A stretch of DNA of 64,000 nt. Origin: Catajapyx aquilonaris (lineage: Eukaryota). Shown piece by piece: positions 1-34,100 of the stretch (its first letter is position 1; every line of letters starts with the position of its first letter). The notes beneath the pieces were generated by a model that worked only from the letters and a program-made list of their open reading frames with translations, was not told the origin of the DNA and ran no database searches. The DNA lies in assembly GCA_000934665.2 (NCBI GenBank), contig KZ538311.1, forward strand, positions 1 through 64,000. Direction: 5' to 3'. The translations under genes and the position numbers were made by a program.

Positions 1-870
1 ATAACGGAGTCTCAAGTCCCTTATGACTAGGTCACATGCTATCACAGTAATAACCTTGTTGTTTGGCAAATTGTTGAAACGAAGGGCAGAAAATATTTTT
101 TGTGCTCCTGGACGGCCCCTGGGCGGAGAAGTATGATAGTTATGGGGTGATAGATGGAGACCATTGAGTTGGTGTTTCCGTGGAGCTTTTGGATGACAGC
201 ACCAGTACTGTGGTTGTGTAAGGAAAATAATTGCATTTTAAGAAGAGCTTGAGTGTCCAAATTACACCAGGCGCCAAATCTCCAGTCGTTCATGTTGGAA
301 GAAGAATTGGAAACAAGTTGGTGCCAAGCCTTATTAGACTAATTCGACCACGCTGATTTAGAAAATCCAGGTTAGAACTCGGGATTTCGGGTCCTTCTGA
401 CCCAAACACAAGATGGCGTCCAAGGTTACGGCATTTCCAAGAATTACGAAGTAGTCGCGAATTTCTCACCTAAATGTGGCAAGTGAGGTGTGGTTTGAGG
501 GGTTTTCTGGGTCGATAAGGTCAACCACTAGTGACCCGAGGTGACAGGACGTCACTGGAAGTAGAAAATTTGAAGTGACAGGTGGTTTTAAGGTCTTGAA
601 AGATCTCGGTCGACGACGTCTGTAGCTCAATTGGCTCATGAGATATGACCGATTTTTGAAACCCTACTTTCCCAAAAGGCTTTTTTTTTTAGGTGGCTCT
701 ATCTCTGGGGAGGGCAGGTAAATCGCAAAACCGCGCAAATCATATTCTTGTAAGACGTAATTAAAGCGATGGCCCGTTTTTCGGAATAATCTGACAACCC
801 AAGGGTCAGGGGGCTCGGTGAATTGACATGGAATGACCCAACTGATGTCCAAATGGTGGATATTACTCAC

Positions 871-3137
871 CAAGAATCAGCAGCAATTCCTGCGCCCTTC
901 CAAGTGCAAACACTGGGATAAGACATCGACCACCTCGATTGACAATGTCATTCACCAGACTTGTGAAGCGGCTCTCTCGCTCCTCCCGCTTTTCATGAAT
1001 GTGAGTCCCATACGTTGATTCCTAGTAATTTGGCAATAATTAGTTTGTAAGTAATAAGACATATTGGAAGCTCCAAAAATAACGAACAATTTGCATCTTC
1101 ACTTCAAGCAATGAACCTAGACCCTGCTCGCACACACCTAATTTCTTGCATGATAAGAAAAGCAAATCTTCAGAACATCTGTTCCTAGTGCTGTATGATC
1201 GTCAGCACTTTAAAAAATTAATTAAATTTCCCACAATATTGTCATCATGCTCCAACCCTAATAGTTGTGTAGCAAGAGGATATTTGTGACAAAAAAAATT
1301 TGACGTACAACACGTGGGATGTGCAGGAATAATGAAATTGTCGCACACGCTGTGAGGGACTTGATGGTACAGTAGTTCATTATTTTCATGAATTCTGAGC
1401 CAGAAACTTCATAAGAATTACTCACAATAATGAGCACATCTGGACGCACGTTGGGAATTTCTGCAGCCATCAGATGCCTGTCTTCCTGCCTCGAGAAGTC
1501 TCCCGTGTACAAGATCTTGACACCTGCAATCTCGATCATAAACATGGCAGCTCCTAGAACGTGGCCAGCGTTGTAGGCCCAAAAGCGAATCCCATTGACG
1601 TCCTTCTCTTCGTGGAAGTTTATTGTCTCTATCCTGTCCATGCTGGCCTCCAGGTCAGTCTCGGAGTACAGCATCTGTTCTGTGGCTATGTTGCTCACTT
1701 TGATGTAATCAGAGAGAAGCCAGCGGTAGATGGCCTTGGTGGCATGTGTCATTAAGCAGCGCCCTTTGAACGTCGTCTTCACCAGAAACCATGGCAGGGC
1801 GCCACAGTGGTCCAAATGAAAGCTGAAAAATGGAAGAATTGTTTCAGGGCACATGTTGCCAGATGTGGAAGAAGCAATATGAGGAGTCAGAATTACATAT
1901 TTAAACATAGCTTGGTATGCATACCACTGTGGAACCAGACACACACAAAAAAAAGGAATTCGTCGCCACAATTAAATTTGAACAACTTTCCTCCCCATTA
2001 CTTTCTCCAAGAAGTAGTATCATTAGCATACAATTGGAACACTCTAAGTCCAAAATAAAATTCCATAAAAATGTTGACTTACTGTGACACCAAAAGGAGA
2101 TCAATTTCGTCAGCTTCAATCAGATCTACAAATGGAAGTGCATCCATTCCTGAGAGTCCAGGGTGGATCCCGCAGTCCAACTGTTTTCAAATAAATAGGT
2201 CAAAACAAGAAGAGAATTAATATATGTGTATTAATACTTCGAGGAAAACGTACTTCAAAAATTATTGTCCTTGTAAGTGATACCTCGTAAACCACAAGAT
2301 GACAGAAGATCTGTGGTTCAATTTGTGACCTGGGAAGTGCATGAATTTTGGAATTTGCCATTCAAGGAGCACATTTTGATGGAATATTGGACAGAAAGAG
2401 CGCACAATACTTAATGTTGTCACATTTGTTTCTTTACATTCCCTATTGCTCTTTTCGGAATCAATGAAATATTATTTGGTGCTACGTTTGCCTGCGATAC
2501 AGGAAGCGTAAAAGACATAAAATCTGCCATGTTTGACACGTTCTTGTGGCGTAACCCACGTCGAAAATATTCGGCAGTCTGATAGGTTGGACGATTTTGA
2601 TTGTGATAAGATCCTCCTTTATTACAGCAAAGAAAGTTCACATTTTTCGTTCTTGGCCAGCTTTTTCCGATTCTGCCGCAGTGTGCATTGGTAAGAAAAA
2701 AAAGGAACTGGGCATGTTTCTGGTGATCCATTACAGACTGGGTTCACGATAAGAATAATATTACCACTCCCGCCAACTCACCATAATTTTCTTTCCTTTG
2801 AACTCCAGCATGATGCATGACCGCCCAACTTCCTGACCTGCACCCCTGAAACATGACATTGCAACATTATCATTATAAGTTTCCAGTGAAAATTATGCAT
2901 TTCCTCAAGCTTGACCACCCCACCGGTCACGACAGTTCGAAGCACATGCTCCGAACATTCCCCACATGGCTTCCCCCCAATATAAAGCCCGGTGTCCCCC
3001 GCCCTGTTGGTCTCCCTCCTTCCTTACAAGGGCCTGATGAGCAGCAGGTCGCTCTCCTCCGCCGGAACGTGGGCATCGGGCTTCCGTTTGATCGTCGCCG
3101 AACCCGAAGAAGACGAGACGACAACAGCAGCGGCCAT
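871..3137 (-). CDS. CPSF3: Cleavage and polyadenylation specificity factor 73 kDa subunit (metallo-beta-lactamase/beta-CASP endonuclease), 5' part; continues beyond the left edge
   Basis: Exons 3137-3028 (MAAAVVV...[11 protein letters not shown]), 2845-2782 ([21 protein letters not shown]), 2180-2083 (LDCGIHPG...LLLVSH), 1822-1426 ([11 protein letters not shown]...[10 protein letters not shown]...[13 protein letters not shown]), 1021-871 (ESTYGTH...[15 protein letters not shown]). All introns are GT-AG with matching phases; HxHxDH motif present. Confidence 0.97.
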
Positions 3138-4989
3138 CTTTGCCAACCGGTTCGAATATCCTGGGCAGCAGCTATGCTACTACTTACAATAATAAAGCCA
3201 ACAAGCGCAGCAGCTTATTTCGGGGCAGCATGTAGCAGCTTCAGTGGATAGCAACTTTCGATCATGCCCCAACTTGCCTTTTAAAACCAGTCCTCCCCAC
3301 CTCATGACCTATGACCCTATGACGTGTCCCCAGCAGTCATGTGCTCTTCTGATTCCAGAAGAGAAATGTAGGTACCACGGCCGTGCTAGGTACGGAAGAG
3401 TCAAAAATATGATTAAGAGGTTATATGACAATAAGTCACGGGTCACCAGGCCCGGTTTATTGTTTTGACCTCCTGATGAATAGTCACCATGACTCATACA
3501 CTGTGCAAGTGAGACGTGTTCCGCATTTTAGGTGCATTTAGCTGCCCTTTTTTCGCATTGCGTAAATGTGCCCAAAATATTTTTTGAAATTTTTTTCGGG
3601 GGACATTTGCACAGTGCATATAAAAGTGTCTAAATTTAGACGGCTTTTTGCGATTGCCAAATTGCGCTGAAACCATATCATTCTGAAGTCCTGCTAATTC
3701 ATGCGATATTGAACTGGACCGCATTCAGGTTTATTAAGACCTTAATAAATTTTTAAATCCAGCTGAATCAGCAGCGGATATAACAGCCTCGGCTGTAATA
3801 ACATACTTTCGGTTATAACAGACTCGAAAAGGCCTGACCCGTAATATTATTTCCATAAGACCCTCTGTATTTTTACTCCTGATATAATAGACTCATATAT
3901 TCACCTCACAGCGGGTATAACATTTCATGACCCTTGAAGGGAAAATACTCTATTTTTTCTGGTATAAAATTGGCAAAAAGGAGACGGCAGAATCAAATTG
4001 CGGGTTTTTTAATGCCCTGCATAATTTTTGGGCGAGCTATAATATTGCGTTTTTGTGGATGGTTTCATTATTTAGTATGTAAAGCTACAGTACGTATAGT
4101 AGTGTAAAAGCGGAAAACTTTCTGTGCGGTATTCGTTGCAAATGGGACGATTTGGCTACAATCTATAACATACCTTGGTATAATGTATCATACTTTTTTC
4201 CGCGGTCCCTTGAAGTCCGTTATATCCGGATTCAATTGTACAAAACTGTAATACCGATGCCGGTATACCCTAAATAAAGAGACTTCATCGTAAGTTTGTG
4301 TCCCTATTTTAAAATTCCAGCATTGCTTTGTACATTTTTTGTAAATTAAAAAATTGACGGAACTTATGTCCACATATTGTGGATGAATATGTAGGCCTAA
4401 TAGCATTAAGAGAGATCGTACAATTTTGAAAGACAATGCCAGGGAGCATCTCCCTGCCAATGATCAATTTTTAAAACCATCAACAAACTGTCACTATTGT
4501 CAGTCTGCAGTAGGCTATACGACAAAATAAAATAACAATGATGAATAATTTCCAGTGTGTCATATGATGAAGGCCGTGAGAAAATTCTTGTAGCATACAA
4601 AAATTTGGCCTGGACGATGAACTCAGATAACTACAGAGCTCCCCCATGATTCAGAGTTAATCCTCAAAGTTAACCTGGGAAAGAAAAGTTGCACGCGTCA
4701 CCAAACTACCAAAAAGGGGAAAGGTCACCGGGGATTGGCCTGTTGGGGGGCAAGGGTTGGGGGGGGTATTGCAAAGGGGGCGTCCCCCAAAATTTCTGGC
4801 GGGTCCTTCCTGGTTCTGCACTGCAACTTTTGGAAATCATTCTGCAGTGGTCGCCGAGGTGAGAAGGTCATCCTCTCCGCTCTGCTTACTTCTTCTTCGT
4901 GTGATTGCTGCAGGCCCATCTTCGGTCCACTCAGCTAGCTTGGTCTTCTGCAGCTTTGGTCCATACCTGCTGCTCTTGCTTCGTGATTG

Positions 4990-5621
4990 GTAAGTAACAC
5001 AGTAGCACTAGAGATTCTATAGTTGCAGCATGATGGTGCAGTACAGCGTGCTGATGCATGTACGGTGGTTTAGTTTGGGATTATTTTTTGCCGCATTTGA
5101 AAATTATACGTGACAATCAAGCCGTATTTATCACCAGCCATTGTCGACTTTTTGCATCTGTACGATGCGAAAAATTGACTTATTGTTGATTGCATATTTG
5201 ACCGAAATGCTGCGCAGTAAAGTAGCATGGTAACTAGCCATTTTCTGATTTAACGCAAGGGGGTTTATTTGCCGTAATATCAGATACCAATACTGGTCCG
5301 CCCCAATTTTCTAGCATACGCCAAAAGCACTTGTAATTTGCTAGCAAAAAGTGAGTCAAGAAAAAGCATGCACAGTGCAATGTAGCGTCACCCCAAAGTT
5401 CCTGGGAGGGACAAAGATTATCTGGTCGGATAATCTGGCCGAAGGGGACAGCTGCCACGCTGCTGGTTGCACCGACCCCGACCGACCCCTACCTGGAAAT
5501 AACCCTTTTCTTGGTTTTGGACAGTGCAAGGAGGGGAGGGGGAACCGGCACTTTTTATTGCGGATTTTTAGCATTTTCGGTTCTGCAGTGTGTATAATAG
5601 CATCCTCGGTTTTCTTTTTAG
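4990..5621 (+). other. Probable 5'-UTR intron of the Jun-like gene
   Basis: Donor G|GTAAGT at 4990; polypyrimidine acceptor TTTCTTTTTAG ending at 5621, 14 nt before the ATG. Confidence 0.55.
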
Positions 5622-5635
5622 CTTGATTGTTGAAG

Positions 5636-6427
5636 ATGGAAGCCAGCATCGTTTACTCCAGCAGGATGCTTCCTGCCGTCCACATCGACGACGACACCTT
5701 TTCGACGTCAACCTCCGAGGAAGACTTCCTGTCCCAACACCAAATGAGCCGAGACTTTCTCCCCTGCCAACAACCGACCTTCAAACCGGTTTTCAACCCG
5801 TCCCAGCAACAAGTTCTGTCCACCCCTGCGCAGGACACGATTGAGCACGTCTCATCCGAGTTGGGGATGTACCTGCAAGGAAACGGCCATCACCAGCAGC
5901 CACTTGTCTTCACCAAGGTTACCGAAGAGCAGGAGGAATACGCCGCGGGGTTCGTCAAAGCCCTTGAGAGCATCCACCAGTCATCCGGATCCTCAACCTA
6001 CAGCAGCAGCCCCGGCTACAGCACATACAACCAAGAGTTTTCGTACCCAACATACGCGACTCTGGAGCCAAAGCCAGCCGTCTTCTCGGAGCCAACAGCA
6101 CCATCCCAGCAGTACAATTTCCAGACCATCACGAGCCAGACACAGCCGGACACCACGATGAACACGGAGGCCCAGGACATGGAGAAGTTGGAGCGGAAGC
6201 GTCTGAGGAACCGCATTGCAGCATCCAAGTGCAGGCGTCGCAAGCTGGAGAAGATTGACAATCTGCAGAAGACGGTGCAGGAACTCAGAGGGGGTAACCT
6301 GGAGAAGGAAAGGGAAATGGTGTCGTTGAAGGAGGACATTGGCAACTTGAATCAGGAGATCAAGATTCACATGGGGTTCGGGTGCCAGGTCGTGGACATT
6401 AATTTTCAGATGAGCAGTTTCAGCTAG
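5636..6427 (+). CDS. jun: Jun-family bZIP (AP-1) transcription factor, 263 aa, intronless CDS
   Basis: Jun motif VTEEQEEYAAGFVKALESIH; basic region KLERKRLRNRIAASKCRRRKLE followed by a leucine zipper; C-terminal HxxxGCQ. ATG at 5636 follows a splice acceptor at 5621. Confidence 0.92.
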   Translation: MEASIVYSSRMLPAVHIDDDTFSTSTSEEDFLSQHQMSRDFLPCQQPTFKPVFNPSQQQVLSTPAQDTIEHVSSELGMYLQGNGHHQQPLVFTKVTEEQEEYAAGFVKALESIHQSSGSSTYSSSPGYSTYNQEFSYPTYATLEPKPAVFSEPTAPSQQYNFQTITSQTQPDTTMNTEAQDMEKLERKRLRNRIAASKCRRRKLEKIDNLQKTVQELRGGNLEKEREMVSLKEDIGNLNQEIKIHMGFGCQVVDINFQMSSFS

Positions 6428-7561
6428 GAATTTGTTGGAAGAGATAAGGCTCAAGGACAGCAGACATTTTCTCCTTTGTCTTCTTTCAAGTTGTGAGCGA
6501 GGATTTTTTTTTTCACCCGGCTGCATGTTTTGACATTATTTGGAAGAAGTTTTATCGCATTTAAATGGCAGTGTGTGCGCGTTTTAATGCGAAAATTTGT
6601 GCTCCTGCAGGGTATTTTAAAAAATAACGAACAACAGCAAAATAGCTGCACGTTCATTTTGAGTAAAAGTGTGAAGGTAGTCATTTTTAAATTACTGCAA
6701 GTTGTAAATATTCCGCATTTTTTTGCCATGCTGAAGTATTGTTGTTTATTTCAATTAATTTTTTTAAAGTTTGATATTGTCAGACCAACTGCAATCTGGA
6801 ATAGAAAATTCAATTTATGATTTTTAACCGATGCGGAAGTCAGTAAGTGCTATTTTATCGGATTTTAAAAAAAAAACCCTTTTTGTGGTTAGTGATATGT
6901 TGTACAAGATGTAAATAATTTGTGTAAAATACCTGTAAATTTGTTCCAGGTATATTGTATGCCACCAATGTTGAACAAACTGTCATTGTTGTAAGTTTTC
7001 AACGCTGTGACGTTGATATTACTTGCAGTTGTTGTTGTTTTCGGAAGGAATGTATCTTGGGCGGGTCCTAAAATATGTTGATATCAATAAATTTATGTTT
7101 GAAGTTATTTGGATATTCAGTGAATTTTTACAGCGTTCTCCTATCTCGTCCAATCTTTCCAGATGTGTTTCTTGCTTTCAGCATGTTGGATTGAGTTGCT
7201 GCACTTATGCCAAATTGTCTGAGTTAGACGATTACATTTCAGTTGAAAGGTTGAAGGTCGACATAAATCTGTCTAGGTCGTCTCAAAAGACAAAAGTCAG
7301 CATTGTTGAAGTCAAGAAGTGCTCCATGCGCAGAATAGGGAATTTTAAAATTTTATATTCTGTTTTACGCTGTCGCAAAGTAGGCCTACGATGGCCAAAG
7401 AAATAACTCAAAATCGTATAATTTAGTTTTATTTGGGTCTCAAAAGTATGGTTTTCTATATCCCAATTGGCATAAAGGCAAACGAATTTGAAAAGTTATT
7501 TTGTAAACTGCGCGGCATCTCTTTTATCTGAAGCCAAAGAAAACTGATAATTTGTGAGAAT

Positions 7562-7657
7562 AGCTGCTTTTCCACCCAAGTGTAGCCTCTTCGGATCAGC
7601 TTTGCCTCTGTAGAGTGTAGACTACAAAATAATTTCGAAAAAATATTTGTAGACTAT
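7562..7657 (+). repeat. Direct repeat copy 1 (~90 bp; partner at 9517-9605)
   Basis: AGCTGCTTTTCCACCCAAGTGTAGCCTCTTCGGATCAGCTTTG...AAAATATTTGTAGACTAT matches 9517-9605 with a few substitutions and indels. Confidence 0.85.
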
Positions 7658-7658
7658 A

Positions 7659-7955
7659 CAGTAGAACCCCGATTATTCGGAATCCGCGGGATTGGGCATT
7701 GTCGGATAACAAGAAAGGTCGGATAATTCGAGAAAACACTACCAAAAGCATTAAAAATTACGAAATAATGTACAATATGACACTTTTATAAGAAATAGTG
7801 AAGTATTTATCTTTTATAGGTACACACTCCGCTGTTTAAAATTTAACTATAGAGCAATACAAACGATTTAATAGCATGCCTGCATTACAGTATATGATGA
7901 GAAAAACATACATTTATTTCTGAAGCTGGACGGTCGGATAAAGGGGATCCTACTG
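7659..7955. mobile_element. MITE, pogo/Tc1-mariner type
   Basis: TA|CAGTAGAACCCCGATTATTCGG ... TCGGATAAAGGGGATCCTACTG|TA: imperfect ~22-bp TIRs with TA target-site duplication. Confidence 0.8.
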
Positions 7956-7972
7956 TATTAGATTCGATTAGA

Positions 7973-8763
7973 TCATTTTTTATTTGAGTTATTTTGACAG
8001 CAGATGGTCATGTCCGGGTAATGGTACTTGCACACGCGGTACGGAGTATCCCTGTACGTCCTCTGCACGTAGTTGCATTTTGACCAAGGCATACACACAC
8101 CAGGCCTGCCCTTCGCTGTCGTACACTCCATAAGGACCTCATGCTCCTTCACTTCTTTCTTGCAGCTCTCTGCTGGCGCACATAGGGGGTGGGAAAAAAA
8201 CATCATTTACAACTGTTTAAAAATTTGTGTTTTAAAATCATGCTGATTGCACATTGTTTTTTCTTAATATTTTTCTTGGCACAACTTCACATACTGCTGG
8301 GTCCACCAGCCGACAGCGGCAAAAGAGCTCTTTTCCGCCATCAGCCAACACCATTAAGAAGGATTATCCCGGAATGTAAATCTATATGAATAAATAAAAA
8401 TTTCTACTGGGGGCGCCTGACCACCACCGCACTATAGGGAATATTCTTCCACCTCATTAAGAGTTAATGTCCATCACTGCACTACACATTGTTGTCTGGC
8501 TTCCCAATACTGTACCCAGCAGCATCTAAAATGTCTGATTAGATCTAGCCCTGATAATTACACGGTGCTTCAGTACTGACGTCACTGAGCCTTTAATTAT
8601 TGTCTCATTGCTGGCATTGTTGGAGGTCATAGTTGGCCGTCAGTACCACAGAGTTCCGATTCGTGCACTTACCTGCTGCTTTCTCCTGCCTGCCTTGGAC
8701 AAACACTCGCAAATCAAGCAGGAAACAAAAAAGGATGACTCGAAATGGTAAAGGAAGATTCAT
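7973..8763 (-). CDS. Putative secreted stand-alone CLIP-domain peptide (~95 aa)
   Basis: Exon 8763-8673 (MNLPLPFRVILFCFLLDLRVFVQGRQEKAA, signal-like, phase-1 GTAAGT donor) joins in phase to exon 8169 (or 8172)-7973, which carries C-X9-C-X5-C-X14-C-X9-CC and then a stop. Confidence 0.65.
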
Positions 8764-9051
8764 GATCCTGCTCCTCCGACCTGCCAGGATAGGAATGGGG
8801 CGACTGTGCGACAAGAGCTGTTACGAGGATTTGATTGAACACGCCTCGGCCACAATGCGTCGTAACAATCATTTTATCGCCTCGCATAATTTAGCTATCA
8901 GGAACAACACATGAGGAGTTTGCGGTCATTTTAGACAAAGATTTGTTACGTACGGGGTACACGCCAATAATGGAGCATTTTCTAGTCGCAATCAGCACCA
9001 GTGTATATCCAGGGAGGAGCGATTTTTGAGCCTATTGTGAGTTTGAGAATA

Positions 9052-9516: not shown

Positions 9517-9605
9517 AGCTGCCTTTTCCACCCAACGTGTAGCCTCTTCGGGTCAGCTTTGGCTTCAGGCTATAAAATAATATCGAGAAAATATTTGTAG
9601 ACTAT
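9517..9605 (+). repeat. Direct repeat copy 2
   Basis: AGCTGCCTTTTCCACCCAACGTGTAGCCTCTTCGGGTCAGCTTTG...AAAATATTTGTAGACTAT. Confidence 0.85.
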
Positions 9606-10607: not shown

Positions 10608-11208
10608 TTTGTCACAGAGTGACCAACACAAGCTTTGGCTGGAGCAGGGCAGGGCATGCCCATTTCGCCCAAGGTGCGATGACACCACAAGGACATGTCT
10701 GTGTATAAGAAGGGCAAAGACCTCCCCCATGTCAGCCCTTAAGGTATAGTAAGGGCAGCTGGTTAATCCTTTTTGGTTTTGGAAATGCATTTTCATCGGA
10801 CATCTGCCTGCAATTTAAAAAGATTGACTTAAGAGGTATTAGAGAGCCCAAAAAGTATTCCGACTTAATCATTAGACCAAAGCCCAATCTAGACCTTTGT
10901 ATATGAAATCGCTTAAAAATAATAGCATACTGTACAGATCGGTACAGATGCTGGAAGGAAACCAAAGTGGATATTCTAATGGCAATAAAAGCAACCCGGA
11001 GAGGGTCTGCTACATCAAAACAAGGAGAAAATCTCTGCCTGCACCTAATCGCAGATTTTATTTAAGTTGGGCTGACATGGGGGGGGGGGGAGGTCTTTGC
11101 CCTTCTTACAGACATGTCCTTGTGGTGTCATCGCGCCTTGGGCGAAATGGGCATACCCTGAGCTGCCCTGCTCCAGCCAAACCTTTGAGTTGGGCACTAT
11201 GTGACAAA
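10608..11208. repeat. Inverted repeat pair (~130-140 bp arms, ~330 bp spacer); probable non-autonomous DNA element
   Basis: 10608-10738 (TTTGTCACA...CCCATTTCGCCCAAGG...ACCACAAGGACATGTCTGT...CATGTCAGCCC) is the reverse complement of 11069-11208. Confidence 0.85.
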
Positions 11209-11402: not shown

Positions 11403-11411
11403 NNNNNNNNN
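11403..11411. other. Assembly gap after a poly-C run (another N at 14563, also after poly-C)
   Basis: N characters in the sequence. Confidence 0.99.
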
Positions 11412-12062: not shown

Positions 12063-12809
12063 ATGGCCGTAGTAGACACCGGTTGGTTTGTTGTCCTGTT
12101 GCTTCTCCTGTGCGCTGCGGCTGCCAGGGAGGCTTATGAGACTGACTGTGGGAGCACCTTGCAGCCAGGGCAGTACCTGTGTCTTGATCTCAACATTGAT
12201 CCGGACACGCAGCAACCCAGGGGATGCACAACGGATAACAGGGCTAAAGGTGCGTCGTAATAATTGAACGCAAGGGTCGGTCGAAAAGGTTTGTTTCATT
12301 GCACTCTGAAGGGTCATTCAGATTTTGTGATAGGTGAATATGTATGGTTTGTATAATTGGCGTTAACTAATCATTGCAATTCTTACAGTGAACTGTACCG
12401 CATCTGATGGTATAATATGCAAAGAAACTGGGAACCAGACATTTGAGAAGGAAATTCCATGCAAATGGACGTAAGTCAGCTCGGAACTATATGTTGCATG
12501 TACGTCGCATTTATCCTGCAATTTTCTAGGAATGGATACTCCTTCGAGACGGCTCTTCTGTTGTCCATCTTCCTCGGGATGTTTGGTGCGGATCGATTTT
12601 ATCTTGGCTACCCAGCGCTGGGGCTGTTGAAGCTTTGCTCTTGGGGTTGTATGTTTCTGGGACAGCTGTTGGACATAATATTGATTGCCACCCAGGTTGT
12701 TGGTCCGGCGGATGGCTCCCATTATGTAATTCCGTACTATGGACCAGGAATTGAAGTCATACGGATGGACAATATGACCTACAGATTACCGCAGGACGAT
12801 TGGTTGTAA
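12063..12809 (+). CDS. TM2D1: TM2 domain-containing protein 1 (BBP-like), 182 aa
   Basis: Exons 12063-12249, 12389-12470, 12530-12809 with compatible phases. Signal peptide, Cys-rich LQPGQYLC...DPDTQQPRGC, TM2 motif NGYSFETALLLSIFLGMFGADRFYLGY and GPADGSHY. Likely non-coding exon ending ~11646 (GTAAGT). Confidence 0.93.
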
Positions 12810-13955: not shown

Positions 13956-16900
13956 ATGGAAGAAGTAATGGCTGGAAATAATCAGGTATAATATGTATTT
14001 GCTGTAGGAGATATAATATTTTAGGTTGACAAACTACGTTAAAACCATTAAAATATGACCTAAGTAATCTGAAAAACCAGTAATATTTGATTAATATGCT
14101 TACACTGAAACGTACAGGGTGAAGGGAAACTCACGGACAATCGCCAGGTAGACTGACCTTTGCTTCTTAGAAGCAGGCAGAACAGGCAGGCAAGTACTAT
14201 CAGTCTACCTGGCGATTGTCCGCGAGTTTCCCTTCACCCTGTAGAAGTGTACGAATGAAATGATTTCCTCTCAATGATATGCGATGTGTATTTTTTACCG
14301 AAGCAGGTTGGTGTAAGGGTTAAGGAGCCAGACTGCTAATCTGGAGGTCCTGGGATCAAATGCCGGGGCCGGCAACTCTGACCGTGGTTTTCTGTGGTTT
14401 CCCACGGTCCCTCCAGGAAAATTCCGGAGTTGTTTCCGTAATTAACAGGCCACAGCCGCTTCCTTCCATCCCTATCCCTTCCCAAAAAGCGAAGCAAAAA
14501 GTAAAAAAGCAAAAAGTTCCTGACAAAAAAAAAATGGGATGAACATACTCCCCCCCCCCCCCNATACATACATACATACATACATACATACATACATACA
14601 TCACGGCATAATCCCATAAATGGGGTAGCTAGCGACGACTAGTTTCTGCCTAGCCGTCTCGTATGACCATTACAATGAATCTTCCGGTGACTGGTCAGGC
14701 CACGCAGAAGATATAATGAGTTTGGTGATGATGAAATCGGTGATATGAACACATACACATACAAATACATAAACATACAATGTAAAAAGTATACAGTATG
14801 GAGACTATAGGCCGCCCACTGCATCCCATCAGCGACGGTGTTATTTGGCACCAGGTTGTCATCTTGCCAGCGAGCACCCCTACTTAATATTATTGATGTG
14901 TATTTTTTCTATTTTAGATATAGGGTGATCCAACTCTATGGCACAAACAGTTATTGGAAAAATCGCGCAAGCTGCTTGTTTATAAGCAGGTCATTGCTAA
15001 GAGATACTTTCTGGAGCATAGGGAATAGCACCTGCTGATATTAGGTCCAATGCCCATGTAACAATATTAATGAGGGAAAAAAGGGTCCTCCGTGGGAAAC
15101 AGGCCTGTTCTGATGTTCGCTGGAGGGTTTCACATGAGGTCACTAGCTGCCAAACCAGAGGCCTAATCCGTCGGAACTGGACAGACCCGGGTGTGTCAAT
15201 AAATAGGCCTTCTGGTCTGTTCATTGTTGGCCGCAGTTGGCGCAACTGAGACAGGTCAACAGGCAGCGCGTTGTTTAGTTACCAGTCTTAGCATCTTCTG
15301 CTGATGTCCAATTAATGAGAGAATGCCCAATGCAGACTGTACTGTTAGAATCCTAGAAGCCCTTGGACGGCCCTCAAACAGGCCCCCTGAGTAAGGCATG
15401 TCCTGACTCTACAAGAACTGTTTATTTACTGGTAACTAAACAACTCGCTGCCTATTGACCTGTCTCAGTTGCGCCAACTGCGGCCAACAATGAACAGACC
15501 AGAAGGCCTATTTATTGACACACCCGGGTCTGTCCAGTTCCGACGGATTAGGCCTCTGGTTTGGCAGCTAGTGACCTCATGTGAAACCCTCCAGCGAACA
15601 CCAGAACAGGCCTATTTCCCACGGAGGACCCTTTTTTCCCTCATTAATATTGTTACATGGGAATTGGACCTAATATCAGCAGGTGCTATTCCCGATTCTC
15701 CAGAAAGTATCTCTTAGCAACGACCTGCTTATAAACAAGCAGCTTGCGTGATTTTTCCAATAACTGTTGGTGCCATAGAGTTGGATCACCCTGTATTTGC
15801 CGTTTTGTTGCATCAGTCATCACAGTGCTGTAATTGTAAGCTTAATCAATTACATTATTTATTAATTCAATAACTGAACACTTTTCCCATTCATTTTCAG
15901 ATTGTGGCCAATTTCCACATGCTGCCAGTGGAGGTCAAACTGAAGATATTTTCTTATCTTCCCAAGAGTGACCTGATGATGAGAACAAGCTTGGTCAGCA
16001 AACATTGGAAAAAGTTGTCGGGAGATTCAAGCCTGTGGGAAGAGATGGAAATTAAATGCTTGAGCTTGCCATCACTGAATGCTCATCGAGTCATGGGAGG
16101 GAAGGTCCAACTGAGAAGGTTGTTGATACAGTTTGGATGTGCAGATGCCATTCTACTTGAAGTAGCAAACACCTGCCCTAAACTTCAGGTGGTCATACTC
16201 ACAGATGCTGTCATTAATGAAATGGTAACACTTGATACTCTAGTACAGAAATGCACTCATATTAGGGATATTGACGTCCGAGAATGTCTGTTGCCAAGAG
16301 GAAGCAAGAGCCTCATTGACATTTTCTCACAATGTTCCCAATTACAGCGTCTGACCTTGCACAATAACAACTGGAGCCAAGCCCCTGTGGATATATCAGT
16401 GCCACGTCATTGGCCTGAACTCAGAGAGTTTTGCATAAGTAAATCAAACGCTAGCAGAGAATTTCAAGTAGTGCTCACCAGTTGCAGCGCCCACCTCACA
16501 AAGTTGGACATTGGATTCAAGCTGACAGATCCAGACCTGTACTCACTTCTGGCTGACTGCCACCAACTAAATGATCTCCGCCTGAAGTACTGCCTCAATC
16601 TGACAGATAAGCAGTTCAACTTAGGCATTGGGAGACTCTGTCGCCTCCGTCATCTCAGTATTGTCGCAGCAAGTAGCCTCACAAGCAAATGTCTCACGGA
16701 CTTCTTCTCAGTACCCGAAAAAGCACGGCATATTGAGACTCTTGATTTGAGTTTCTGTAAGCTTGATGACAGTTGCCTTGCTGCCATTGGCTCCCATTGC
16801 CCTGCACTTACCAAACTGAAACTAATATGTTGCACCAAGACATCTATTGAGGGCCTGATAGGCTTGGTGAAAAAGTGCATTAACTTGAGGTTTTTGGACA

Positions 16901-17016
16901 TCAGGGGATGTCATCAGCTCTACATGTGTAAGGAAGTGCCAGAGCAGTTTAAAAGTTTCAGTCCTCAACTTGAGATAAAGTACTGGTATGAAGGAGCCCA
17001 CATTTTTGAGTACTAG
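13956..17016 (+). CDS. F-box/leucine-rich-repeat (FBXL-type) protein A, ~381 aa
   Basis: Probable first exon 13956-13985 (MEEVMAGNNQ, phase 0) plus 15901-17016. F-box LPVEVKLKIFSYL...SLVSKHWKKL; Cys-containing LRRs such as IETLDLSFCKLDD and LRFLDIRGCHQL. Confidence 0.88.
14115..14241. mobile_element. 127-bp Tc1/mariner-type MITE
   Basis: TA|CAGGGTGAAGGGAAACTCACGGACAATCGCCAGGTAGACTGA ... TCAGTCTACCTGGCGATTGTCCGCGAGTTTCCCTTCACCCTG|TA; 42-bp TIRs with one mismatch. Confidence 0.9.
14297..14600 (+). mobile_element. tRNA-derived SINE
   Basis: A-box-like TGGTGTAAGGG, stem-loop CCAGA-CTGCTAA-TCTGG, B-box-like GGATCAAATGCC, a body (GTGGTTTTCTGTGGTTTCCC...GGCCACAGCCGCTTCCTTCC), an A-rich tract and an (ATAC)n tail. 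Confidence 0.75.
14921..15793. mobile_element. 873-bp foldback/MITE with ~366-bp near-identical inverted arms
   Basis: Arms at 14921-15286 and 15428-15793, TA flanks, termini (C/T)AGGGTGATCCAACTCTATGGCAC. Mirror ORFs 14997-15245(-) and 15469-15717(+) are almost identical. Confidence 0.93.
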
Positions 17017-17464
17017 AGTCTGACGAGGAAGAGGAACCTGGAATAATTGTTGACGTCAAGGATAAGTGAACAGTTTCATTACATTTTAGCATACCTGTGA
17101 GAATAGTTAGTTACTCGCAAAAGAAATGCTAGCAGTTGTAATTTGTGTATTATAATGTTGGTTGTCACTCAGAATTATGAATAAAGACTTTGATTTCCCT
17201 ATAAAAACAGTGTGATCCACAAGTAGTTCCCACAACTTTTTTCACCCACCAATAACATTATACATCATTGACTTGAATAGTCATCATTTCACTGATATTT
17301 TACAGTAACAATTGGTGGCCGTTATTACATTTGTTATTGTGTGACAATAACCTTTATTTCCTCCATGACTGTCATCCTACCAGCTGTGGGAACCATGGTT
17401 GCTACATGTTGATGCCATTAATTGTTGAGGAATATATTTTGTGAACATGAATGTAGGATACAAT

Positions 17465-18769
17465 ATGGATCATGGTGACAATTTCAATACCCGCAAGGTC
17501 TTGAACATCATGGTAAGTAAAAAAATTAATGCGTACCACAACTATTGTAGTTTTGATGAAGTTAGTGTGCCTTATTTGGCGGAGTTATTGAGCACTTATA
17601 TTTTAATGAATTTACTATTGCAGGCTAACAAAACGACATTCTCGTCTCTTCCTGACGAGATTAAACTGAAGGTCTTTAGCTTCCTGTCAGCTCAAGATAA
17701 GCTGCTGACCGCTTCCCTAGTGTGCAAGAAGTGGCATCATCTCTGCCAAGACTGGAGCCTCTGGAGGCATCTGGAGCTTCGAGGCTGGAAGCTCACCATC
17801 CCAAAGGCGATCCAGCTGGTGAAGAACCTGCCCCATGTCAGCCGCCTCACCTTAAATTGCTGGTTTCCGCATCAGAACGAATCGATTTTGGCAACCCAGA
17901 ACGTGGACGACGTTTTGCAAGCAGCCAGTACTTCTTGCACCTCACTGGAAAAGCTGCATCTGGCCTGCGCGAACATAGCTCAAGAGGAAACCCTGGAAGA
18001 TCTGGTGCAGAATTGTCCAGGGCTGACCGAAGTCACGGTCGAGTACTGCAGGCTTCCTGGAAACGGATCACACTTGCTGGACACATTCTTGAGGTGCCAG
18101 AACCTGAGATGCCTGCAGTTCAACTTCAACAGCCCGCTGATGCTTCAGTTCGACGAGAGGACGATGCACAGAAGGTGTCCTAAGCTGACAGAAGTTGCAG
18201 TCACCAGCACCACAACGGATGCTGAGGTTGGTGCTGTGGTTGCCTGCGTCGGACCACAGCTGAAGGCGCTGCATACTTTCTATCTTCACAACCCGGAGTC
18301 GTACCTGCTGCTCACGAGGTGCCAGAATCTACGTGACCTGTGTCTGACTGACGCAGTGTCCATGACCAACGAGGGGCTGCTGAAGGGGGTCGGATCTCTG
18401 CACCACCTTCATCGATTGGTTATACTCATGGCGACTTCCTTGACTGCAGATGCCCTCATCACCTTCTTCTCCAGGCGACGAGTGGTGGGTCACCTACGAC
18501 ACCTGGATATGGGAGGGACACGCCAGCTGAACGACGAATGCGTCGACGCCTTGGTCGACAAAGCTTGTCTCTGCCTGACCTACCTGGACATCGGATCCTG
18601 CAAGGTCACCAAGTGGTGCACCTTCCTGAACCTGGCCACTCGATGCCGTCAACTGACGGACCTGTACGCCCAGGAATTGCTCGGGTTGCGTTTGGAGGAC
18701 TTTGACCTGCAGCAGCTGTCGCAAGTGCGGCCTGGACTTGTCATTCACGATGAGGGGAACGAGGAGTAG
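17465..18769 (+). CDS. F-box/leucine-rich-repeat (FBXL-type) protein B, ~397 aa
   Basis: Exon 17465-17512 (upstream in-frame ATG at 17447) plus 17624-18769. F-box LPDEIKLKVFSFL...SLVCKKWHHL; LRRs LRHLDMGGTRQLND and LTYLDIGSCKVT. Confidence 0.9.
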   Translation: MDHGDNFNTRKVLNIMVSKKINAYHNYCSFDEVSVPYLAELLSTYILMNLLLQANKTTFSSLPDEIKLKVFSFLSAQDKLLTASLVCKKWHHLCQDWSLWRHLELRGWKLTIPKAIQLVKNLPHVSRLTLNCWFPHQNESILATQNVDDVLQAASTSCTSLEKLHLACANIAQEETLEDLVQNCPGLTEVTVEYCRLPGNGSHLLDTFLRCQNLRCLQFNFNSPLMLQFDERTMHRRCPKLTEVAVTSTTTDAEVGAVVACVGPQLKALHTFYLHNPESYLLLTRCQNLRDLCLTDAVSMTNEGLLKGVGSLHHLHRLVILMATSLTADALITFFSRRRVVGHLRHLDMGGTRQLNDECVDALVDKACLCLTYLDIGSCKVTKWCTFLNLATRCRQLTDLYAQELLGLRLEDFDLQQLSQVRPGLVIHDEGNEE

Positions 18770-26900: not shown

Positions 26901-28116
26901 GCACAAATGTGGGAAGTCCTTAAAAGATGAATAATTGCACATATTACTCCGAAGAATAGTCTAATATTTATTTCAACAAATTCTTTCATATATGATGACG
27001 TATTTAATGGCCGCTTATGCTTGAGATGATGACAATAATACAATTACCAACATGAAAGTCCAATTGCTGAGTTGAGGGAAAGTAAATCCTATCACACCAC
27101 TGCATTTGAGGAAATAAAGTAATTATCATGACAGGTGACAAAAAACGGTTTGACGGACCCAAGTGCACCGTTAATTCCCAAAATTGGCGAGAACACATTT
27201 TTTTTCCTTCGCAAAAAAAAGGGTCGTGTAACTTGTCAGTCACGGAACTACCACCTCCGAGTAGGTGTGTCAGTACACTCCTCTTCAATGAAGATTAGCG
27301 AGGAAAGAGAATTTGCATGCAGGGAAAGTGATACATGACGACATGTTATTCAAAGGCAGTCAGTCGTGGTCCTTAGGGCGAGGTCTGCGGAGCGAGTCGT
27401 GACAGGTGCTCTCGAAGGAAAATTTCACTTGCATTACATTACTTTGGTTACTCTTAGTTCACGAGGGCACTTGGCACACCGGGAAGTTTTCAATGGAAAT
27501 AAAAGCTACGGAAGGAGTTGTTAAAATGTCACGCTCTGCCTACTGCTGCTCCTACAGACCCAGTCTGGTGCACTCTTATTTTTTTTCATTCAATTTTTTT
27601 TGCCATTGTATCGTGCAATCTCTCACCGCATTGTTCCTCTCCTGTGTGTGTGTGTACTCTATGCAGAAAGCTCGAAAGAAACGTATAGTTAGCCAAGTGT
27701 GATCTGATTACGTTTATGACTAACTGTTATTCATTTTTTTTAAAGGAGCAACATTGAGAGGCCCAACTTCAGCCCTGCCAGAGAGCATTGAAGAACAGTT
27801 AAATGCGTCAGTGCAGGTAACAGCAAATTGAATTGCACTGCCAGTGAGCAGTAAAAAAAAGGGTCAAGGAATGCTTTGTCCTTTTTTGGTGCGAACTTGC
27901 TCCAGTCAGTTCCCTTCCCTGATACGTACTGTACGTGACAAAGGATGATGCGATAAGAGTTCATTGTCACTTTCAACCATCCTTCATTTCCTGGAAAACT
28001 AACCGTGCCGTGCATGGTTCGAAACTGCATTATGCAGTTTAACAGTCCTTTTTTGTTCATGTCACTTTCACACTAAAATCAGTGTGACAGGTGTAACTGT
28101 TACCATGTGTTTTCAG

Positions 28117-31100
28117 ATCGAAGAGGATGACCTCAACGCAAATGCCACTGACCTTGTGGTGCTGGTGCCCGATGAAGATTCAAACGACACAGTGGAAGTG
28201 TACGAGTCGCTAGAGAACATCACCAACGAGAGCACTGAGGCGACATTCTTCACGACATCGACGACGAGTCCTCCGGATAAGAAAGAAGCAGAAGTGGTGG
28301 TTGTGCTGCCGATTCGCATGAGAGGCAAGAGGCCATCGGCAAAAGAGATCCGAAGGAGGCAAGAAGAGGTACAAGATGAAGGAATTAATCCTCTAGAAGA
28401 AATCTTGCCTCGAGTGACCTTTGACTGCACTGATCGCCATGAGGGTTACTACGCGGATTTGGAGTTCGAATGCAGGGTATTCCACTTCTGCACCGAGAAT
28501 GGTGTGAGACACACCTACTTGTGCGGCGGAAACGCCACTTTCAACCAGGTGTGAACTCGCTCAATTACTTGCAGTTATATACCCTTTATTTTCCAGTGGA
28601 ATGAAGCGGAATATGTCCAAAGGCGGATGAGTCTGCACGACTCGATTTATTCAATTATCACTGCATTTGCTATGCTTTCTTGCATTCATCTCTCTAATTG
28701 CTTTCTGTGATCTCAACCTTGAAAATGTGATATTTGGCTGTTTTTTTTTTTCGAGGAGAAACGGACGTCTCGCGGTGACTTTCCCTAATGTTTTTACCGG
28801 CAGGAGAAACCTTTCTAATTGCGCATGCGAGTGTATTTATACTGTCCAAGACCGAGAAGTATATTTCCGCTAACTATACATCCTTGTATTTCCCTAACAG
28901 AAAGTCATGACCTGCGACTACTCCACAAATGCAGTTTGCAACGAATCGTCCACATACTTCCACATGAACGAGGTCAAGTTTCAGAAGGACGTTCAGCACT
29001 CTGCAGGACAACCCCAAGCCAAGAGGGAAGGACCACCAGTGAGGCTGCATCTTCCAAAGGGCACGCAATCTGCAAAGCATCCGGAGAAGTCTCCAATGTG
29101 GAAGCAGTACATGCGACCAGCATCTTCGCCGTCGTCGAGTGAACTGAACGCAGTTCCTCCTGAGGTCAAATCTTCCTGGAAGGGCGAAAAGGGCGATAGT
29201 GACCCGACTTTTAACAGTCCTCCTCCTGATGTGTTCGACAACAGCGAGCACCAAATTGCACGAAGAGGTCCTCTGATAGGTCCGATCAGTGTTGAAGAAA
29301 GGTCGTCTGTTAGCGACGAAGTCAGTATTGAGAGCTCTCCGATCATTGAACAAAAGGAAAGTACGATTGTAAAGTACGGAGATGATCGTCCGGCTGTTTA
29401 TAATGTTCCAATAGTACCTTTAACAAGCATTCACGTGCTGACCTCCCTAAAGCCTGTTTTGTTGAACGAGCAGCCAACACCTGAAGTTGTCCAGTATGAG
29501 CCGGTATTTTCACAGCTTTACAATGATCCTGTTTTGGAGGAACTGGAGAGAGAAGTAGAAGAGAGATGGGTAGCATCAGGTGAACGAAGACGACAGGAAT
29601 TGGAGGCAGAGAAAAAGGTGATTCAAGATGAAGTTGTCGCTGAAAATGTTCCTGAGAACAAGGCCGTAGAAGAAGAGGCGACTGATTCACCTCTGGTTCG
29701 TGAAATTGTACCTGAGACGACGGAAAGCAGCGTACCAGCTAGTGAAGAAGCTGAACTAAAATCAGAGACGGTGGAAGTACAGCTTGTGCCAGTAGTAAAT
29801 GACAACGACAAATTTGCAGTAAACGCTGCGTTCAATATGACAAATCAACACAATGAAAACAACTTGAACGACTCGTCGGCTCACACCGAACATGATTTTG
29901 CTCATGTCCGGTCTTGGAGACGGCGCAGGATTACCACATCATCGCCAGCAGTTACCAGAACGCCAATCACAACAGTCAGAGACGCACAGTCCATTATAAG
30001 AAGGCAACAACAATACAGACCACGTGCATTTAAAACTCGAAACGTCAAAACTCCAGAATACAGGAAGAAATATTGGGTCAGAAGTAGGGGGCCTGTACCT
30101 TCAACGGACAATAAAGAGAACGAAACCCAACAAGACATAAACAAGTCAGAGATTTTGACATCGACTCCTTCAAGCATTATTCTTGAGACAACAGTGGCAC
30201 CGACCCTACAAATTCCTTCCGACAACCTGCCAGAAATTGTGGAAGAGATCGAAGCAAAGAAGGACCCCGAAGTGGTAACACTTATTCTCAGTACTACTGT
30301 AGGACCTACAGAAATTGAGTACACGTTGCCACCAAATCCAACTTTCGAAATAAAGGAAGTACCTGCGGTGGTTGCAGAGGCCAGAAGCTTAGAATTGGAT
30401 CAAATCAGTCAAAATGGGCATCCTTCTTTGGAACACTCGAGCGAAGAAGCAGATTTTTTCTTCCCAAACATCAGGGCGCATCCGGATGAGGAAAAACTTC
30501 GCGGAAAACGTCGAGTTGCAGTTTTAGTGAGCGAGAGAGAAACTCGCAGAAATTTTGACAAAGACGGATTGGAAGCTTTTAGAGCATTGTCTCATTTTGC
30601 TGAAGCAGGTGCTCCTCTGCATAGAGAAGCGCTGTACGAGGTGCCTGATCATACCGTACCGTACCCTGACATTACACCTGTGGACGGTTACTTCGGATCC
30701 AAAATGCCTGTTGCACAAGACAGGAGTGGGGAAATAGATGATACTCCTGATTCACCAGTGAGACGAAACAGGCAGAGGTTGGCACAAAGAACAGATCCGA
30801 GCAAGAGAAATGACCGCAGGCCTCTAGAATTTGACGACAGCTCCGAAGTCACCTTTGTTAAAGAGGAACGTCGAGATGGAGAGTTCAAGCCATCGTTTGG
30901 TCCTCCGAAAAGAAAACCAGAGAAGCATCTGGTGCGACCAAGCAGAGACGAAGGGCAGGAAAATCCGGAATCAAGACGAAAGCATCGCCCTAGTTCTCCA
31001 GACCAATCAGGTTCACCCCAGACAATCGAGATAGTGAGGCACAGTCGTCCATCAGACCAGCGGTATTTGAACAGAAGGCCAACCTCTTCTGATCACAGGC

Positions 31101-34100
31101 ACCATCACAGCCCGCATCACTCTTCGTCGAAACATTCTCACGACAAAGTGAGGGCAGACGAGAGAGGTCACGGTCACCATCCTCCTGGAATTCCTCCAGT
31201 TCTCTATCAAAGGCCCCAGTTCGCACCTATTGGAAGTCTTGTCAACAACTTGGGATATCCTTCTTCGATATACCAGCTCAGAGACGAACCGCTCCCTGTG
31301 CGACCTTTGGAGACGAGCAAACGACAGGTGCATCACGGTCAATCCAGACCGACAAAGCAGGACGTAAGAAAACCCGGATCACTCTTCCAGGACTTTGAAG
31401 AAATAGCCCTGCCCCAGTTCCATCAAATATTGGAGCAGTATGAGCTGAGCGATCCTAGGGGTGTACGGCAAGGAGCTAATCCTCATTTGGCTCACAACAG
31501 GCCGATTCCTCTTCAAGGACCACCGGGGCACCATCCGCATTTGCCAGTACACCACCAACCGCCTCTGGAGTTCCATCCCGATTTGTTTCAAGCTCAGGGA
31601 CCTACCAGAGTCGTCCCTCACGACAGACGACCTGGACACATCCCTCAGGAAGCCCTTGCCCAATTCCAGAACCACAGGCCACAACCTTTCCGGATACCTG
31701 GCCACACCCAGCAAACTTTCGGTGGGCATCAGTTTGCTCAGAATCAGTTCTTCTCCTTGAATCCTCAGCAGTTGCACCACACTCCAGGACACGGTCACGG
31801 TGCTGGGGGTGTTCCAGGCGGACATGGTAGCAGGTTCTCGCCTCCAGTGAATCTGAGACCATTTGTCTTACTGCTGGACGAACACACTGACAAGCCCGCT
31901 GAAGGGTCTAAGACGAAGATTCCAAACGAAGTGGTGTCGCATCTGACAACAGCAGCACCTCATATAGAAAAGCCATTGTCTGCACAGAACACTAGACACA
32001 GGGTACCACAAAGAGTCAAGGTGGTAACGACAACACCAGACACCAAATTGCAGGAAGAAAGCAGCGTCGAACCCACACCATCTCCGGAGCAGTTCAGACG
32101 GGTTCGACCCAAGGTGCGAACCAGTCCTCCACCTGCAACACGGAGACCCACCAGACCCACTGCCACCAGACCAACAAGACCTACCACACACCAGCCAACA
32201 GTCATCAGCGAAACAGTACAGAGGAGGCCCTTGAAGACGTCCTTCATATACAACTCTGACGAGGATGACGGCGAGGAGTCTGTCCCTGCATTGGCACCTC
32301 AAAGACACAACAAGCCCGTGGTCCACCGGCCTCACCTGGACGGATCCAGCGAGTCTGAAGAAGGCTTCTCCGGAGAGGCGCCAAGATTTCCAAACCGTCC
32401 GTTCAACGTATATTTCAACTCGGACGAGTCGTACGAGCACTCGGAAGAAAATTCGGATGAGAGTGGTGAGCAACCCAATCACTTCCCGAGACAACCTCAG
32501 AGACCGCAGAGGCCACAACGCCCTACCTCACCACCTCCTCAAACCAGACACCGTCCTAGGGATCCAACAAGAACCCAGCATCCGTCCACAATCATTCCTA
32601 ACTTTCCTCTAGAAGAGTACAAGGAAGACGCTCCCATCGAAGTGGTGACTTCTCCAGTATTACGCAACTTTGGCGAAGGCGGTACGGTCAGACCTAATGT
32701 CGAATCGCAAAAGATTTTGCAGCATTTCACTACGCCTAATCCAAACGCACTCTTGTTCACGGTGACTCCTGATCAGATTCAAGGAAAGCCTACTACTCCG
32801 CAAAACTTCGGATCATTCGAGGTTCAGTCGAACGGGGCTGAACAAAACGCAATACTAGGTGTCACACCAGATGGCAATCCTTCCACGCAGATTCCGCACA
32901 AGGAAGAGCCCACATTTCAAAGGGGACGTGTCCCGATACGAAACACAGGTCAACATCAAAGAGTACCACAAACGGCAGAAACTACTCCAGAGAACAATGT
33001 AGTGGACGTGCCTTCCAGACGACCATCTAAGCCAGTGAGAGTCAACCACCACGCTTCTGGAGAAGTCCAACCGCCAGAAACAACCACTGAGACAGGACAC
33101 CTGAAAATCCCCGGAAGAAGAGTCCCAGTCAGACAACGCAGGCCAAACCAAAACCAAAACCCAAACCCCGAGCAAGCTGAATCCGAAGTGAAATCCACAC
33201 GTGGAAGGCTACCACCTGGAGTTGTTAGACGACGTCCCATCAAAGAGACCACGGAATCTCCAGACACAAAAGTTGCTGAAGAAACTGCAGAAAATTCGGT
33301 GAAGAGAGTGCCTGCTGCAGAAGCCTCACAACAGGAGAGTCCAGACGAACCGACATCAGACGATGCCACGACTGAAGCTCCTCTGAAGAATCCTCAGAGG
33401 ACCAGAGTACGTACTCCAGGACTCCGAAACCAACTGAGGCCAAGACCTTGGGCTGGACTTGGAAATCGACTGAACGGGGTCAAAAAGGACGAGAACGAAT
33501 CGACATCAAACAGAGATTCAGAGCTTCAGGTGACCACACCGCTGTCTGAACTGTCCGAAACCGCCACCCGTGCACTTCTACGCAACAGGCTTAATAATTT
33601 GCAAAAGCTAAGAAACTCCAGCAATGGTAGGTTGAGGTTTCCGCTTAGGTTTGGAGCCGGACAGCGCCAAAAAGAGCCAACAGAAGATGAGCCAATGAAG
33701 GAAGCGTCTGTGTCTGTTGAATCCGCCGCATCAGACAAAGCCGAAGAGCAGCTGTTTTCAACCAGTGAAGCACCACTGACAAGCTCCAGAACACCTCTGA
33801 TTGGTCGTATTCGTCCAGCCGCCCCTCTTTTTGTCCGAAACAGCAATGGAAACAGCCGATTCAGCAGCAGATATCGCTCGCCTACAGAAGGGCCTGAAGA
33901 TATGACTTCAGAAGCGGAGGAATATGACGTGGCCACTTCCAAACCGGAAGGTGTAGAAGAAAGTAGACAGGAGTCGACAACCAGCTTCAGCACTCAAGGT
34001 GCATCTTTACCTGCATCCGCTTCAGACCGGCTGAAGGCTCTGTACCGAAAGAGAAATTCGTTGCTGAAGACGCGAAACCCTCAAGGCGAAGTCGATTCTC

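Follow-up and report, generated by a model that had tools for sequence, protein, structure and literature searches.

The first 64,000 nucleotides of contig KZ538311.1 (assembly GCA_000934665.2) of Catajapyx aquilonaris, referred to here as the window, carry on their minus strand what we read as an intact gene of two exons; its product would be a small secreted protein with a single CLIP domain, acting as a free defence module that binds microbes or partners. We give this complete reading a probability of about 0.5, with parts that differ in strength. The gene model, the CLIP-type frame of cysteines, the score against the Pfam profile and the finding that the window holds no protease sequence come directly from the sequence and the searches. 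A real and expressed clip-only gene, the mini-gene in what follows, is probable. Given such a gene, a role as an effector or binding protein would be plausible, if short of an even chance, and that of a regulator of a protease cascade would be a weaker possibility, with the remainder falling to other roles.

Clip domains normally precede the proteases of immune cascades, and they define the protease cascades behind arthropod melanisation and Toll activation. The binding and action of the domain itself are only partly understood, and it has nearly always been studied within a protease or a protease homologue. A free secreted clip domain of ~8 kDa would be a simple, reagent-sized probe for use with microbes, phenoloxidase and upstream proteases, and would show that this module is usable alone in evolution. 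Were the mini-gene merely an unexpressed duplicate, it would represent an ordinary by-product of gene-family turnover.

A predicted two-exon gene with its own stop codon

The coding part of the first exon comprises 91 nt (30 codons and one base), starting with an ATG at 8763-8761, and encodes the peptide MNLPLPFRVILFCFLLDLRVFVQGRQEKAA. It ends at a donor of perfect consensus (CAG followed by GTAAGT, with the GT at 8672-8671), and on the other side of the intron a strong pyrimidine tract, TTTTTTTCCCACCCCCT, stands just before a tandem acceptor, CAGCAG. This NAGNAG acceptor (8169-8174, minus strand) allows exon 2 to start at 8172 or at 8169, both in phase, resulting in 96 or 95 codons and in isoforms that differ by one Ala, both of which are possible. 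An initial annotation of this stretch had joined a signal-peptide-like exon in phase to the second one at 8673/8169; the splice sites for this predicted junction are present where it was placed, and 8172 is an equally in-phase alternative. The GC content is 0.42 in the intron and 0.47 in the coding sequence (0.57 at third codon positions).

Exon 2 encodes ESCKKEVKEHEVLMEC-TTAKGRPGV-C-MPWSK-C-x14-C-x9-CC-QNNSNKK-stop, with the first core Cys at 8125-8123, the sixth at 7999-7997, and a TGA at 7975-7973, seven codons past the CC doublet. An additional, seventh Cys, within ESC at 8164-8162, lies N-terminal to the domain. The pattern CTTAKGRPGVC-MPWSK-C-X14-C-X9-CC, the stop seven codons after it and the extra Cys ahead of it had all been claimed from the letters alone, and all of them are present in the translation. 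Past the stop codon lies a putative poly(A) signal (Table 1), and another AATAAA overlaps the final codons of the mini-gene. A chance origin is unlikely, because the exon that scores above the CLIP cut-off is joined in phase to a signal-peptide-like one and comes together with consensus splice sites and a poly(A) signal.

On inspection, the N-terminal segment resembles a signal peptide, with R8 in its n-region, VILFCFLL as its hydrophobic core and V-Q-G occupying positions -3 to -1, and its Kyte-Doolittle 9-mer maximum reaches 2.74 over residues 9-17 of the exon 1 peptide. Inspection and hydropathy make cleavage after G24, between VQG and R, likely. The mature peptide is thereby predicted to have 71-72 aa, a mass of 8.4 kDa, an isoelectric point (pI) of 9.04 and seven Cys, with 14 K+R against 8 D+E. 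A homodimer prediction with two copies of the clip peptide gave a score of 0.04 and a mark of 0.32.

The Pfam scan took in all 457 stop-to-stop open reading frames (ORFs) of at least 55 aa in the window (150 + 59 + 125 + 123), and the Trypsin family matched none of them; nor did it match, with E allowed up to 0.1, any of 57 shorter ORFs (28-54 aa) on the minus strand of 1..7972. A six-frame motif scan of the window found neither a TAAHC-type His motif nor DSGGP. A looser Ser pattern gave one match, GNSGS at ~60807, in a low-complexity context, and the activation-site pattern gave two, far off and on the other strand. The claim that no trypsin-like exons follow is thus upheld by these searches. 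In clip proteases, the tethering Cys sits in a linker C-terminal to the clip domain. After the domain of the mini-gene comes just the tail QNNSNKK, with no linker bearing an activation site and a tethering Cys, and no S1 protease or protease-like domain lies C-terminal to the clip in the same polypeptide. Because linker, activation site and S1 domain are absent, the mini-gene is not to be classed as a CLIP protease or a serine protease homologue (SPH), even though its domain has the sequence features that define CLIP.

Within the window, the gene ends at its own stop codon. The mini-gene might instead be part of a larger gene, with an upstream exon spliced to an acceptor near 8780 or with onward splicing from exon 2 beyond the window, and this would draw on the pyrimidine tract and AG at 8795-8781, just upstream of the ATG, and on the edge of the window, which lies just 8 kb downstream. 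However, an in-frame stop at 8823-8821 precedes the ATG, the ATG leads directly into the signal-peptide-like segment, no GT resembling a donor is seen by eye after the CC doublet (GTCAAA being the only one), and two other genes stand between the stop codon and the window edge. Taken together, these features make a larger gene very improbable.

Assignment of the six-cysteine domain

The disulfides of clip domains join C1-C5, C2-C4 and C3-C6, and the domains are grouped by the length of their C3-C4 loop. The Pfam CLIP profile PF12032 matches exon 2 with 23.1 bits (E 8.9e-5) against a curated cut-off of 20, so that the comparison with CLIP profiles proposed in the initial annotation came out in favour of the domain, over half of the profile. 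The longer ORF of 77 aa scores 21.1 bits against the same profile. No other Pfam family reaches its cut-off, the matches to Thionin and DUF7866 falling below theirs. The clip of the PPAF-II type (PF18322, CLIP_1) does not match the mini-gene peptide even at E up to 10, and is encountered only among neighbour clusters in the Atlas, with scores of 0.81-0.82. The peptide also contains no R-x-K/R-R site. The peptide has six core Cys with the last two adjacent, in agreement with the clip criterion applied in a passage of PMC11172050, a Cys doublet preceded by four other Cys. We regard a true CLIP-type domain, of the PF12032 kind rather than the PPAF-II kind, as very probable. At the level of gene model and domain, this supports the initial proposal of a signal peptide followed by one CLIP-type domain without a protease.

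Comparisons with individual proteins point in the same direction. Among PDB sequences, phmmer places the clip region of Drosophila Grass (2xxl) first, though its E of 0.16 is non-significant; this region has CTT..G..G.CMP.S.C in common with the mini-gene. A full HMMER pass over 1.84 billion representative proteins resulted in five matches at E<=0.001, two of which are CLIP-repeat proteins by Pfam and free of protease. The other three were discarded as junk translations of tandem DNA repeats. The closest real relatives are the uncharacterized proteins LOC129906476, LOC129907072 and LOC129907073 of the hoverfly Episyrphus balteatus, a species in which four proteins carry PF12032 repeats only, without a protease. 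All six Cys align with each repeat of LOC129906476, at ~30% identity, and the matches beyond the Cys include the T after C1, the G..G before C2, the S before C3, the D before CC and the NN after it. The spacing between Cys is 9/5/14/9 in the mini-gene and 9/5/19/9 in 19 of the 21 hoverfly repeats that a pattern search recovered. In a Smith-Waterman comparison the peptide scores 85, against 36.7 +/- 7.8 for shuffles with fixed Cys, none of which reached 85 in 1000, a supportive result that yields no clean probability, its target having been preselected as the best of a huge library.

A feature search of the Atlas gave arthropod Clip-domain clusters as the nearest ones, with a score of 0.85, which is taken as a lead only. 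The Atlas clusters named 'Clip domain-containing protein (Fragment)', of 69-123 aa, may be protease fragments and were not counted as evidence for free clip domains.

Both AF2 (AlphaFold2) models, which are of low confidence, have the order strand-strand-helix-strand-strand, and this is compatible with the clip fold, described in part of PMC11172050 as a distorted beta-sheet with helices. Foldseek ranks the clip structures 2ikd and 2ike fourth and seventh, behind and among kinase N-lobes, and VIA-align gives Z 2.6, 2.5 and 2.4 to the clip entries 2ikd, 2ike and 2xxl, tied with unrelated folds.

Several points weigh against reading the locus as an intact gene for a free clip protein of defence. 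As for the gene, the splice junction at 8673/8172 (or 8169) is a prediction, the possible acceptor at 8781/8780 leaves space for an upstream exon, and the hydrophobic core of the signal segment is short, with eight residues followed by D and R. As for the domain, the CLIP assignment is moderate rather than strong, because Pfam aligns just profile positions 1-27 of 54. The library E-values are inflated by summing many near-identical weak repeat matches, so that the E of 1.8e-11 for LOC129906476 overstates the evidence, and one single hoverfly repeat, matched with 31 bits, is non-significant alone in that library; the preselected target of the shuffle test belongs here as well. Likewise, the mean pLDDT (predicted local distance difference test) of the AF2 models is low (67.5 from the single sequence, 57.5 with a five-row alignment), and Foldseek gives no match in the PDB at E<=0.001 and VIA-align no significant one over 48,161 chains, the best Z being 3.2. 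As for the role, a mud-crab clip-SPH is described in part of PMC3665817 as binding bacteria with no direct antibacterial activity, and passages of PMC4553444 state that the clip domain of the wasp venom protein Vn50, when isolated, did not affect melanisation.

Some of these same points would suit a secreted Cys-rich peptide of another or new family, with a CLIP-like frame reached by convergence: the half-profile alignment only 3 bits over the cut-off, the PDB-sequence match at E 0.16, the lack of a significant Foldseek or VIA-align match, and a C3-C4 loop of 14 residues, shorter than the 19 of the hoverfly repeats. On the other hand, Pfam, phmmer against the PDB, the best real matches of the library search and the Atlas features all indicate CLIP and nothing else, residues other than Cys also match the hoverfly repeats at a score that no Cys-fixed shuffle attains, and the only clip structures in the PDB lists come within the top rows, though tied with unrelated folds. 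Convergence appears rather remote in view of this agreement.

Surroundings of the mini-gene

The features of the window are collected in Table 1, and the neighbours of the mini-gene are ordinary unrelated genes, with no immune cluster in the window. The initial annotation had also proposed a search for paralogues, and this can be answered for the window, where tblastn recovers no second clip sequence but only the mini-gene itself, the next match having an E of 0.13.

Table 1. Features of the 64,000-nt window, with those of the mini-gene first
Feature	Position	Strand	Remarks
Exon 1, coding part	8673..8763	-	ATG and signal-peptide-like segment; ends in phase 1
Intron	8173..8672	-	500 nt, or 503 nt with the second acceptor; donor GTAAGT
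Exon 2, coding part with stop	7973..8172 (alternative start 8169)	-	odd Cys, six-Cys CLIP-type domain, tail, TGA
CLIP-type core, Cys1-Cys6	7997..8125	-	C-x9-C-x5-C-x14-C-x9-CC; 43 aa, pI 9.06
Putative poly(A) signal AATAAA	7913..7918	-	55 nt past the stop, then a T/GT-rich stretch; read directly
Possible TATA-like element GATAAAAT	8871..8878	-	~110 nt upstream of the ATG; weak, by eye
~96-nt repeat, downstream copy	7562-7657	+	82.7% over 98 columns against the upstream copy
~96-nt repeat, upstream copy	9517-9605	+	direct pair with 7562-7657
Metallo-beta-lactamase (MBL)-fold exon of another gene	1261-1971		Pfam; likewise in the downstream space of the mini-gene
Intronless Jun-like bZIP ORF	5627-6424	+	Pfam; converges on the mini-gene, in its downstream space
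TM2-domain exon	12447-12806		Pfam
Two F-box and leucine-rich-repeat ORFs	15874-17013, 17429-18766	+	Pfam
Peritrophin-A (CBM_14) exons around a P/E/S/T-rich ORF	28003-28551, 28898-34606, 45105-45464	+
Disabled-type sulfatide-binding motif and PTB/PID exons	57018-57551	+	Pfam

The surroundings bear on the question of whether the mini-gene is a non-functional relic or an unexpressed ORF, derived by truncated duplication from the 5' end of either a clip protease gene or a multi-CLIP gene and as yet undecayed, and perhaps moved together with the DNA between the flanking ~96-nt repeats. These direct repeats bracket the mini-gene and have no further copy in the 64 kb; they may be two copies of a dispersed element, or else they may mark a segment that was duplicated or moved. 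Together with this bracketing, the relic would account for a mini-gene that is single, with no paralogue in the window, and that has no orthologue among the 1.84 billion representative proteins. A word-indexed search for homologues among proteins of 35-114 aa gave no candidate either. Against the relic, neither the ORF nor any of its six core Cys is damaged, the start context, the two splice sites and the poly(A) signal are likewise intact, and remnants of protease exons were not found downstream. Moreover, the Jun-like neighbour is also only 33-41% identical to its matches, so poor sampling of the lineage may explain the missing orthologues. We consider a relic distinctly unlikely. The single locus returned by a metagenome scan was rejected, being a chance match in the wrong frame of a bacterial ORF that resembles prolyl-oligopeptidase.

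The 3' half of the ~96-nt repeat holds an imperfect palindrome. A second structure, a nested inverted repeat at 10630-11185, has arms of 59, 29, 23 and 18 nt with 93-96% complementarity around a centre of ~330 nt, and would be an element of the foldback kind or one resembling a miniature inverted-repeat transposable element (MITE); a run of nine N follows it at 11403. Rfam gave no match in the window.

As for the other genes, the best named relatives of the Jun-like protein are from crustaceans and horseshoe crabs, and the ORF could be either a divergent paralogue or a gene from a poorly sampled lineage. Taken with the CBM_14 and CLIP domains, these relatives point to a poorly sampled arthropod lineage as the source of the window. 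The F-box and leucine-rich-repeat ORFs resemble two neighbouring genes in tandem, apparently with few introns. The frame of 1903 codons rich in P/E/S/T (28898-34606) has a Thr-rich tail and no Pfam match, and it probably forms, with the chitin-binding exons, one or two mucin-like peritrophin genes. Past the PTB/PID exons, GC-rich long ORFs without a Pfam match extend to 63552, and both probably belong to a Dab-like adaptor gene.

Possible roles and comparison with known systems

According to the reading proposed here, the signal peptide would be removed after VQG, the six core Cys would then form the three clip disulfides, and the resulting cationic knot would be a free extracellular module for binding. 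Its likeliest role would be that of a defence effector binding to microbial surfaces, with or without direct killing, whereas competition for the partners of clip-domain proteases would be less likely; the seventh Cys could tether the domain covalently to itself or to another protein. Defence or binding is favoured because the peptide is small, cationic and disulfide-knotted, because its nearest relatives are enzyme-free strings of clip domains, and because, in shrimp PmMasSPH1, the N-terminal part with the clip and the glycine-rich stretch is reported as antimicrobial against Gram-positive bacteria, as quoted from earlier work in part of PMC4372372. Such a role would match the reports on clip-containing N-terminal fragments of crustacean clip proteins. 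Binding would be a safer guess than killing, since the crab clip-SPH bound bacteria but had no direct antibacterial activity. The roles suggested in the initial annotation, namely a cascade decoy, an antimicrobial or venom-like peptide, or a dimer through the odd Cys, are conjectural.

The main rival to a defence effector, which we find unlikely, is a clip-only secreted regulator of extracellular protease cascades, that is, a decoy or adaptor occupying the docking partners of clip domains or, in a variant that shares the same low likelihood, a peptide whose odd Cys would form a disulfide in trans with a protease that has no clip of its own. The clip is a regulatory and docking module in clip proteases and their homologues, and the seventh Cys of the mini-gene is unpaired. 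This Cys, however, lies N-terminal to the domain, whereas the tethering Cys of clip proteases is C-terminal. According to passages of PMC4553444 and PMC4372372, the cleft of the PPAF-II clip domain is where phenoloxidase binds, and this would favour a regulator. On the other side, the Vn50 clip left melanisation unchanged not only alone but also when mixed with the protease-like domain (PMC4553444, in part), which weighs somewhat against a simple decoy, even though that clip is of the PPAF-II type and the result transfers loosely.

A broader and much more speculative view, which we regard as a long shot, is that arthropods have an unrecognised class of extracellular factors, namely free clip domains, which are encoded singly here and as proline-linked strings in hoverflies. 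The hoverfly strings could then be cut into single clip peptides, and the odd N-terminal Cys of the mini-gene would form a covalent link in trans, either with a target or with a protease lacking a clip. If true, a two-chain 'clip protease' would be rebuilt from separate genes, or a surface would be armed with a docking module, and there would be a natural handle on what clip domains bind.

Returning to the single defence module, its closest counterparts of known structure are the clips of clip proteases (Grass, 2XXL; Manduca PAP-2, 2IKD and 2IKE), which also come from arthropods and also have six Cys with a terminal CC. The start C1-x9-C2-x5-C3 is common to the mini-gene and Drosophila Grass. 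Unlike the clip proteases, the mini-gene stops seven residues past the CC and has a short C3-C4 loop (14) and an extra N-terminal Cys.

The clip domain of the crayfish prophenoloxidase-activating enzyme is also reportedly antimicrobial against Gram-positive bacteria as a separated peptide. This and the PmMasSPH1 fragment resemble the mini-gene in that the clip module is separated from the protease part. However, those peptides are laboratory fragments of larger proteins, whereas the mini-gene, as far as its sequence tells, encodes the free domain as such.

Clip domains have been likened to defensin-type peptides with three disulfides (big defensin, beta-defensin). The mini-gene peptide matches no defensin family by sequence or by profile, and the defensin-like toxin fold of a sea anemone (1wqk) reaches a non-significant Z of 2.4 in VIA-align, but it is, as defensins are, small, cationic and predicted to be secreted, with a core of six Cys.

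The hoverfly proteins remain the nearest comparison. They have in common with the mini-gene the CC followed by x-N-N, N-terminal signal-like segments, and PF12032 as the only Pfam domain. They differ in that their clip repeats, between 3 and at least 7 per protein, follow one another in tandem with proline-rich linkers between them, where the mini-gene has one domain, and in a C3-C4 loop of 19-20 residues instead of 14. They also come from a fly, whereas the window seems to stem from a non-insect or basal hexapod arthropod. A basic pair closes each of their proline-rich linkers, just ahead of the following repeat, which recalls multi-peptide precursors, and the four proteins are all reported on one chromosome-sized contig. 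A full-text search found no paper on a natural stand-alone or protease-less clip gene, a weak negative since the subscription journals of the field are largely uncovered. Protease-free clip proteins are already known from public annotation, and what would be new here is a clip domain encoded singly, on its own.

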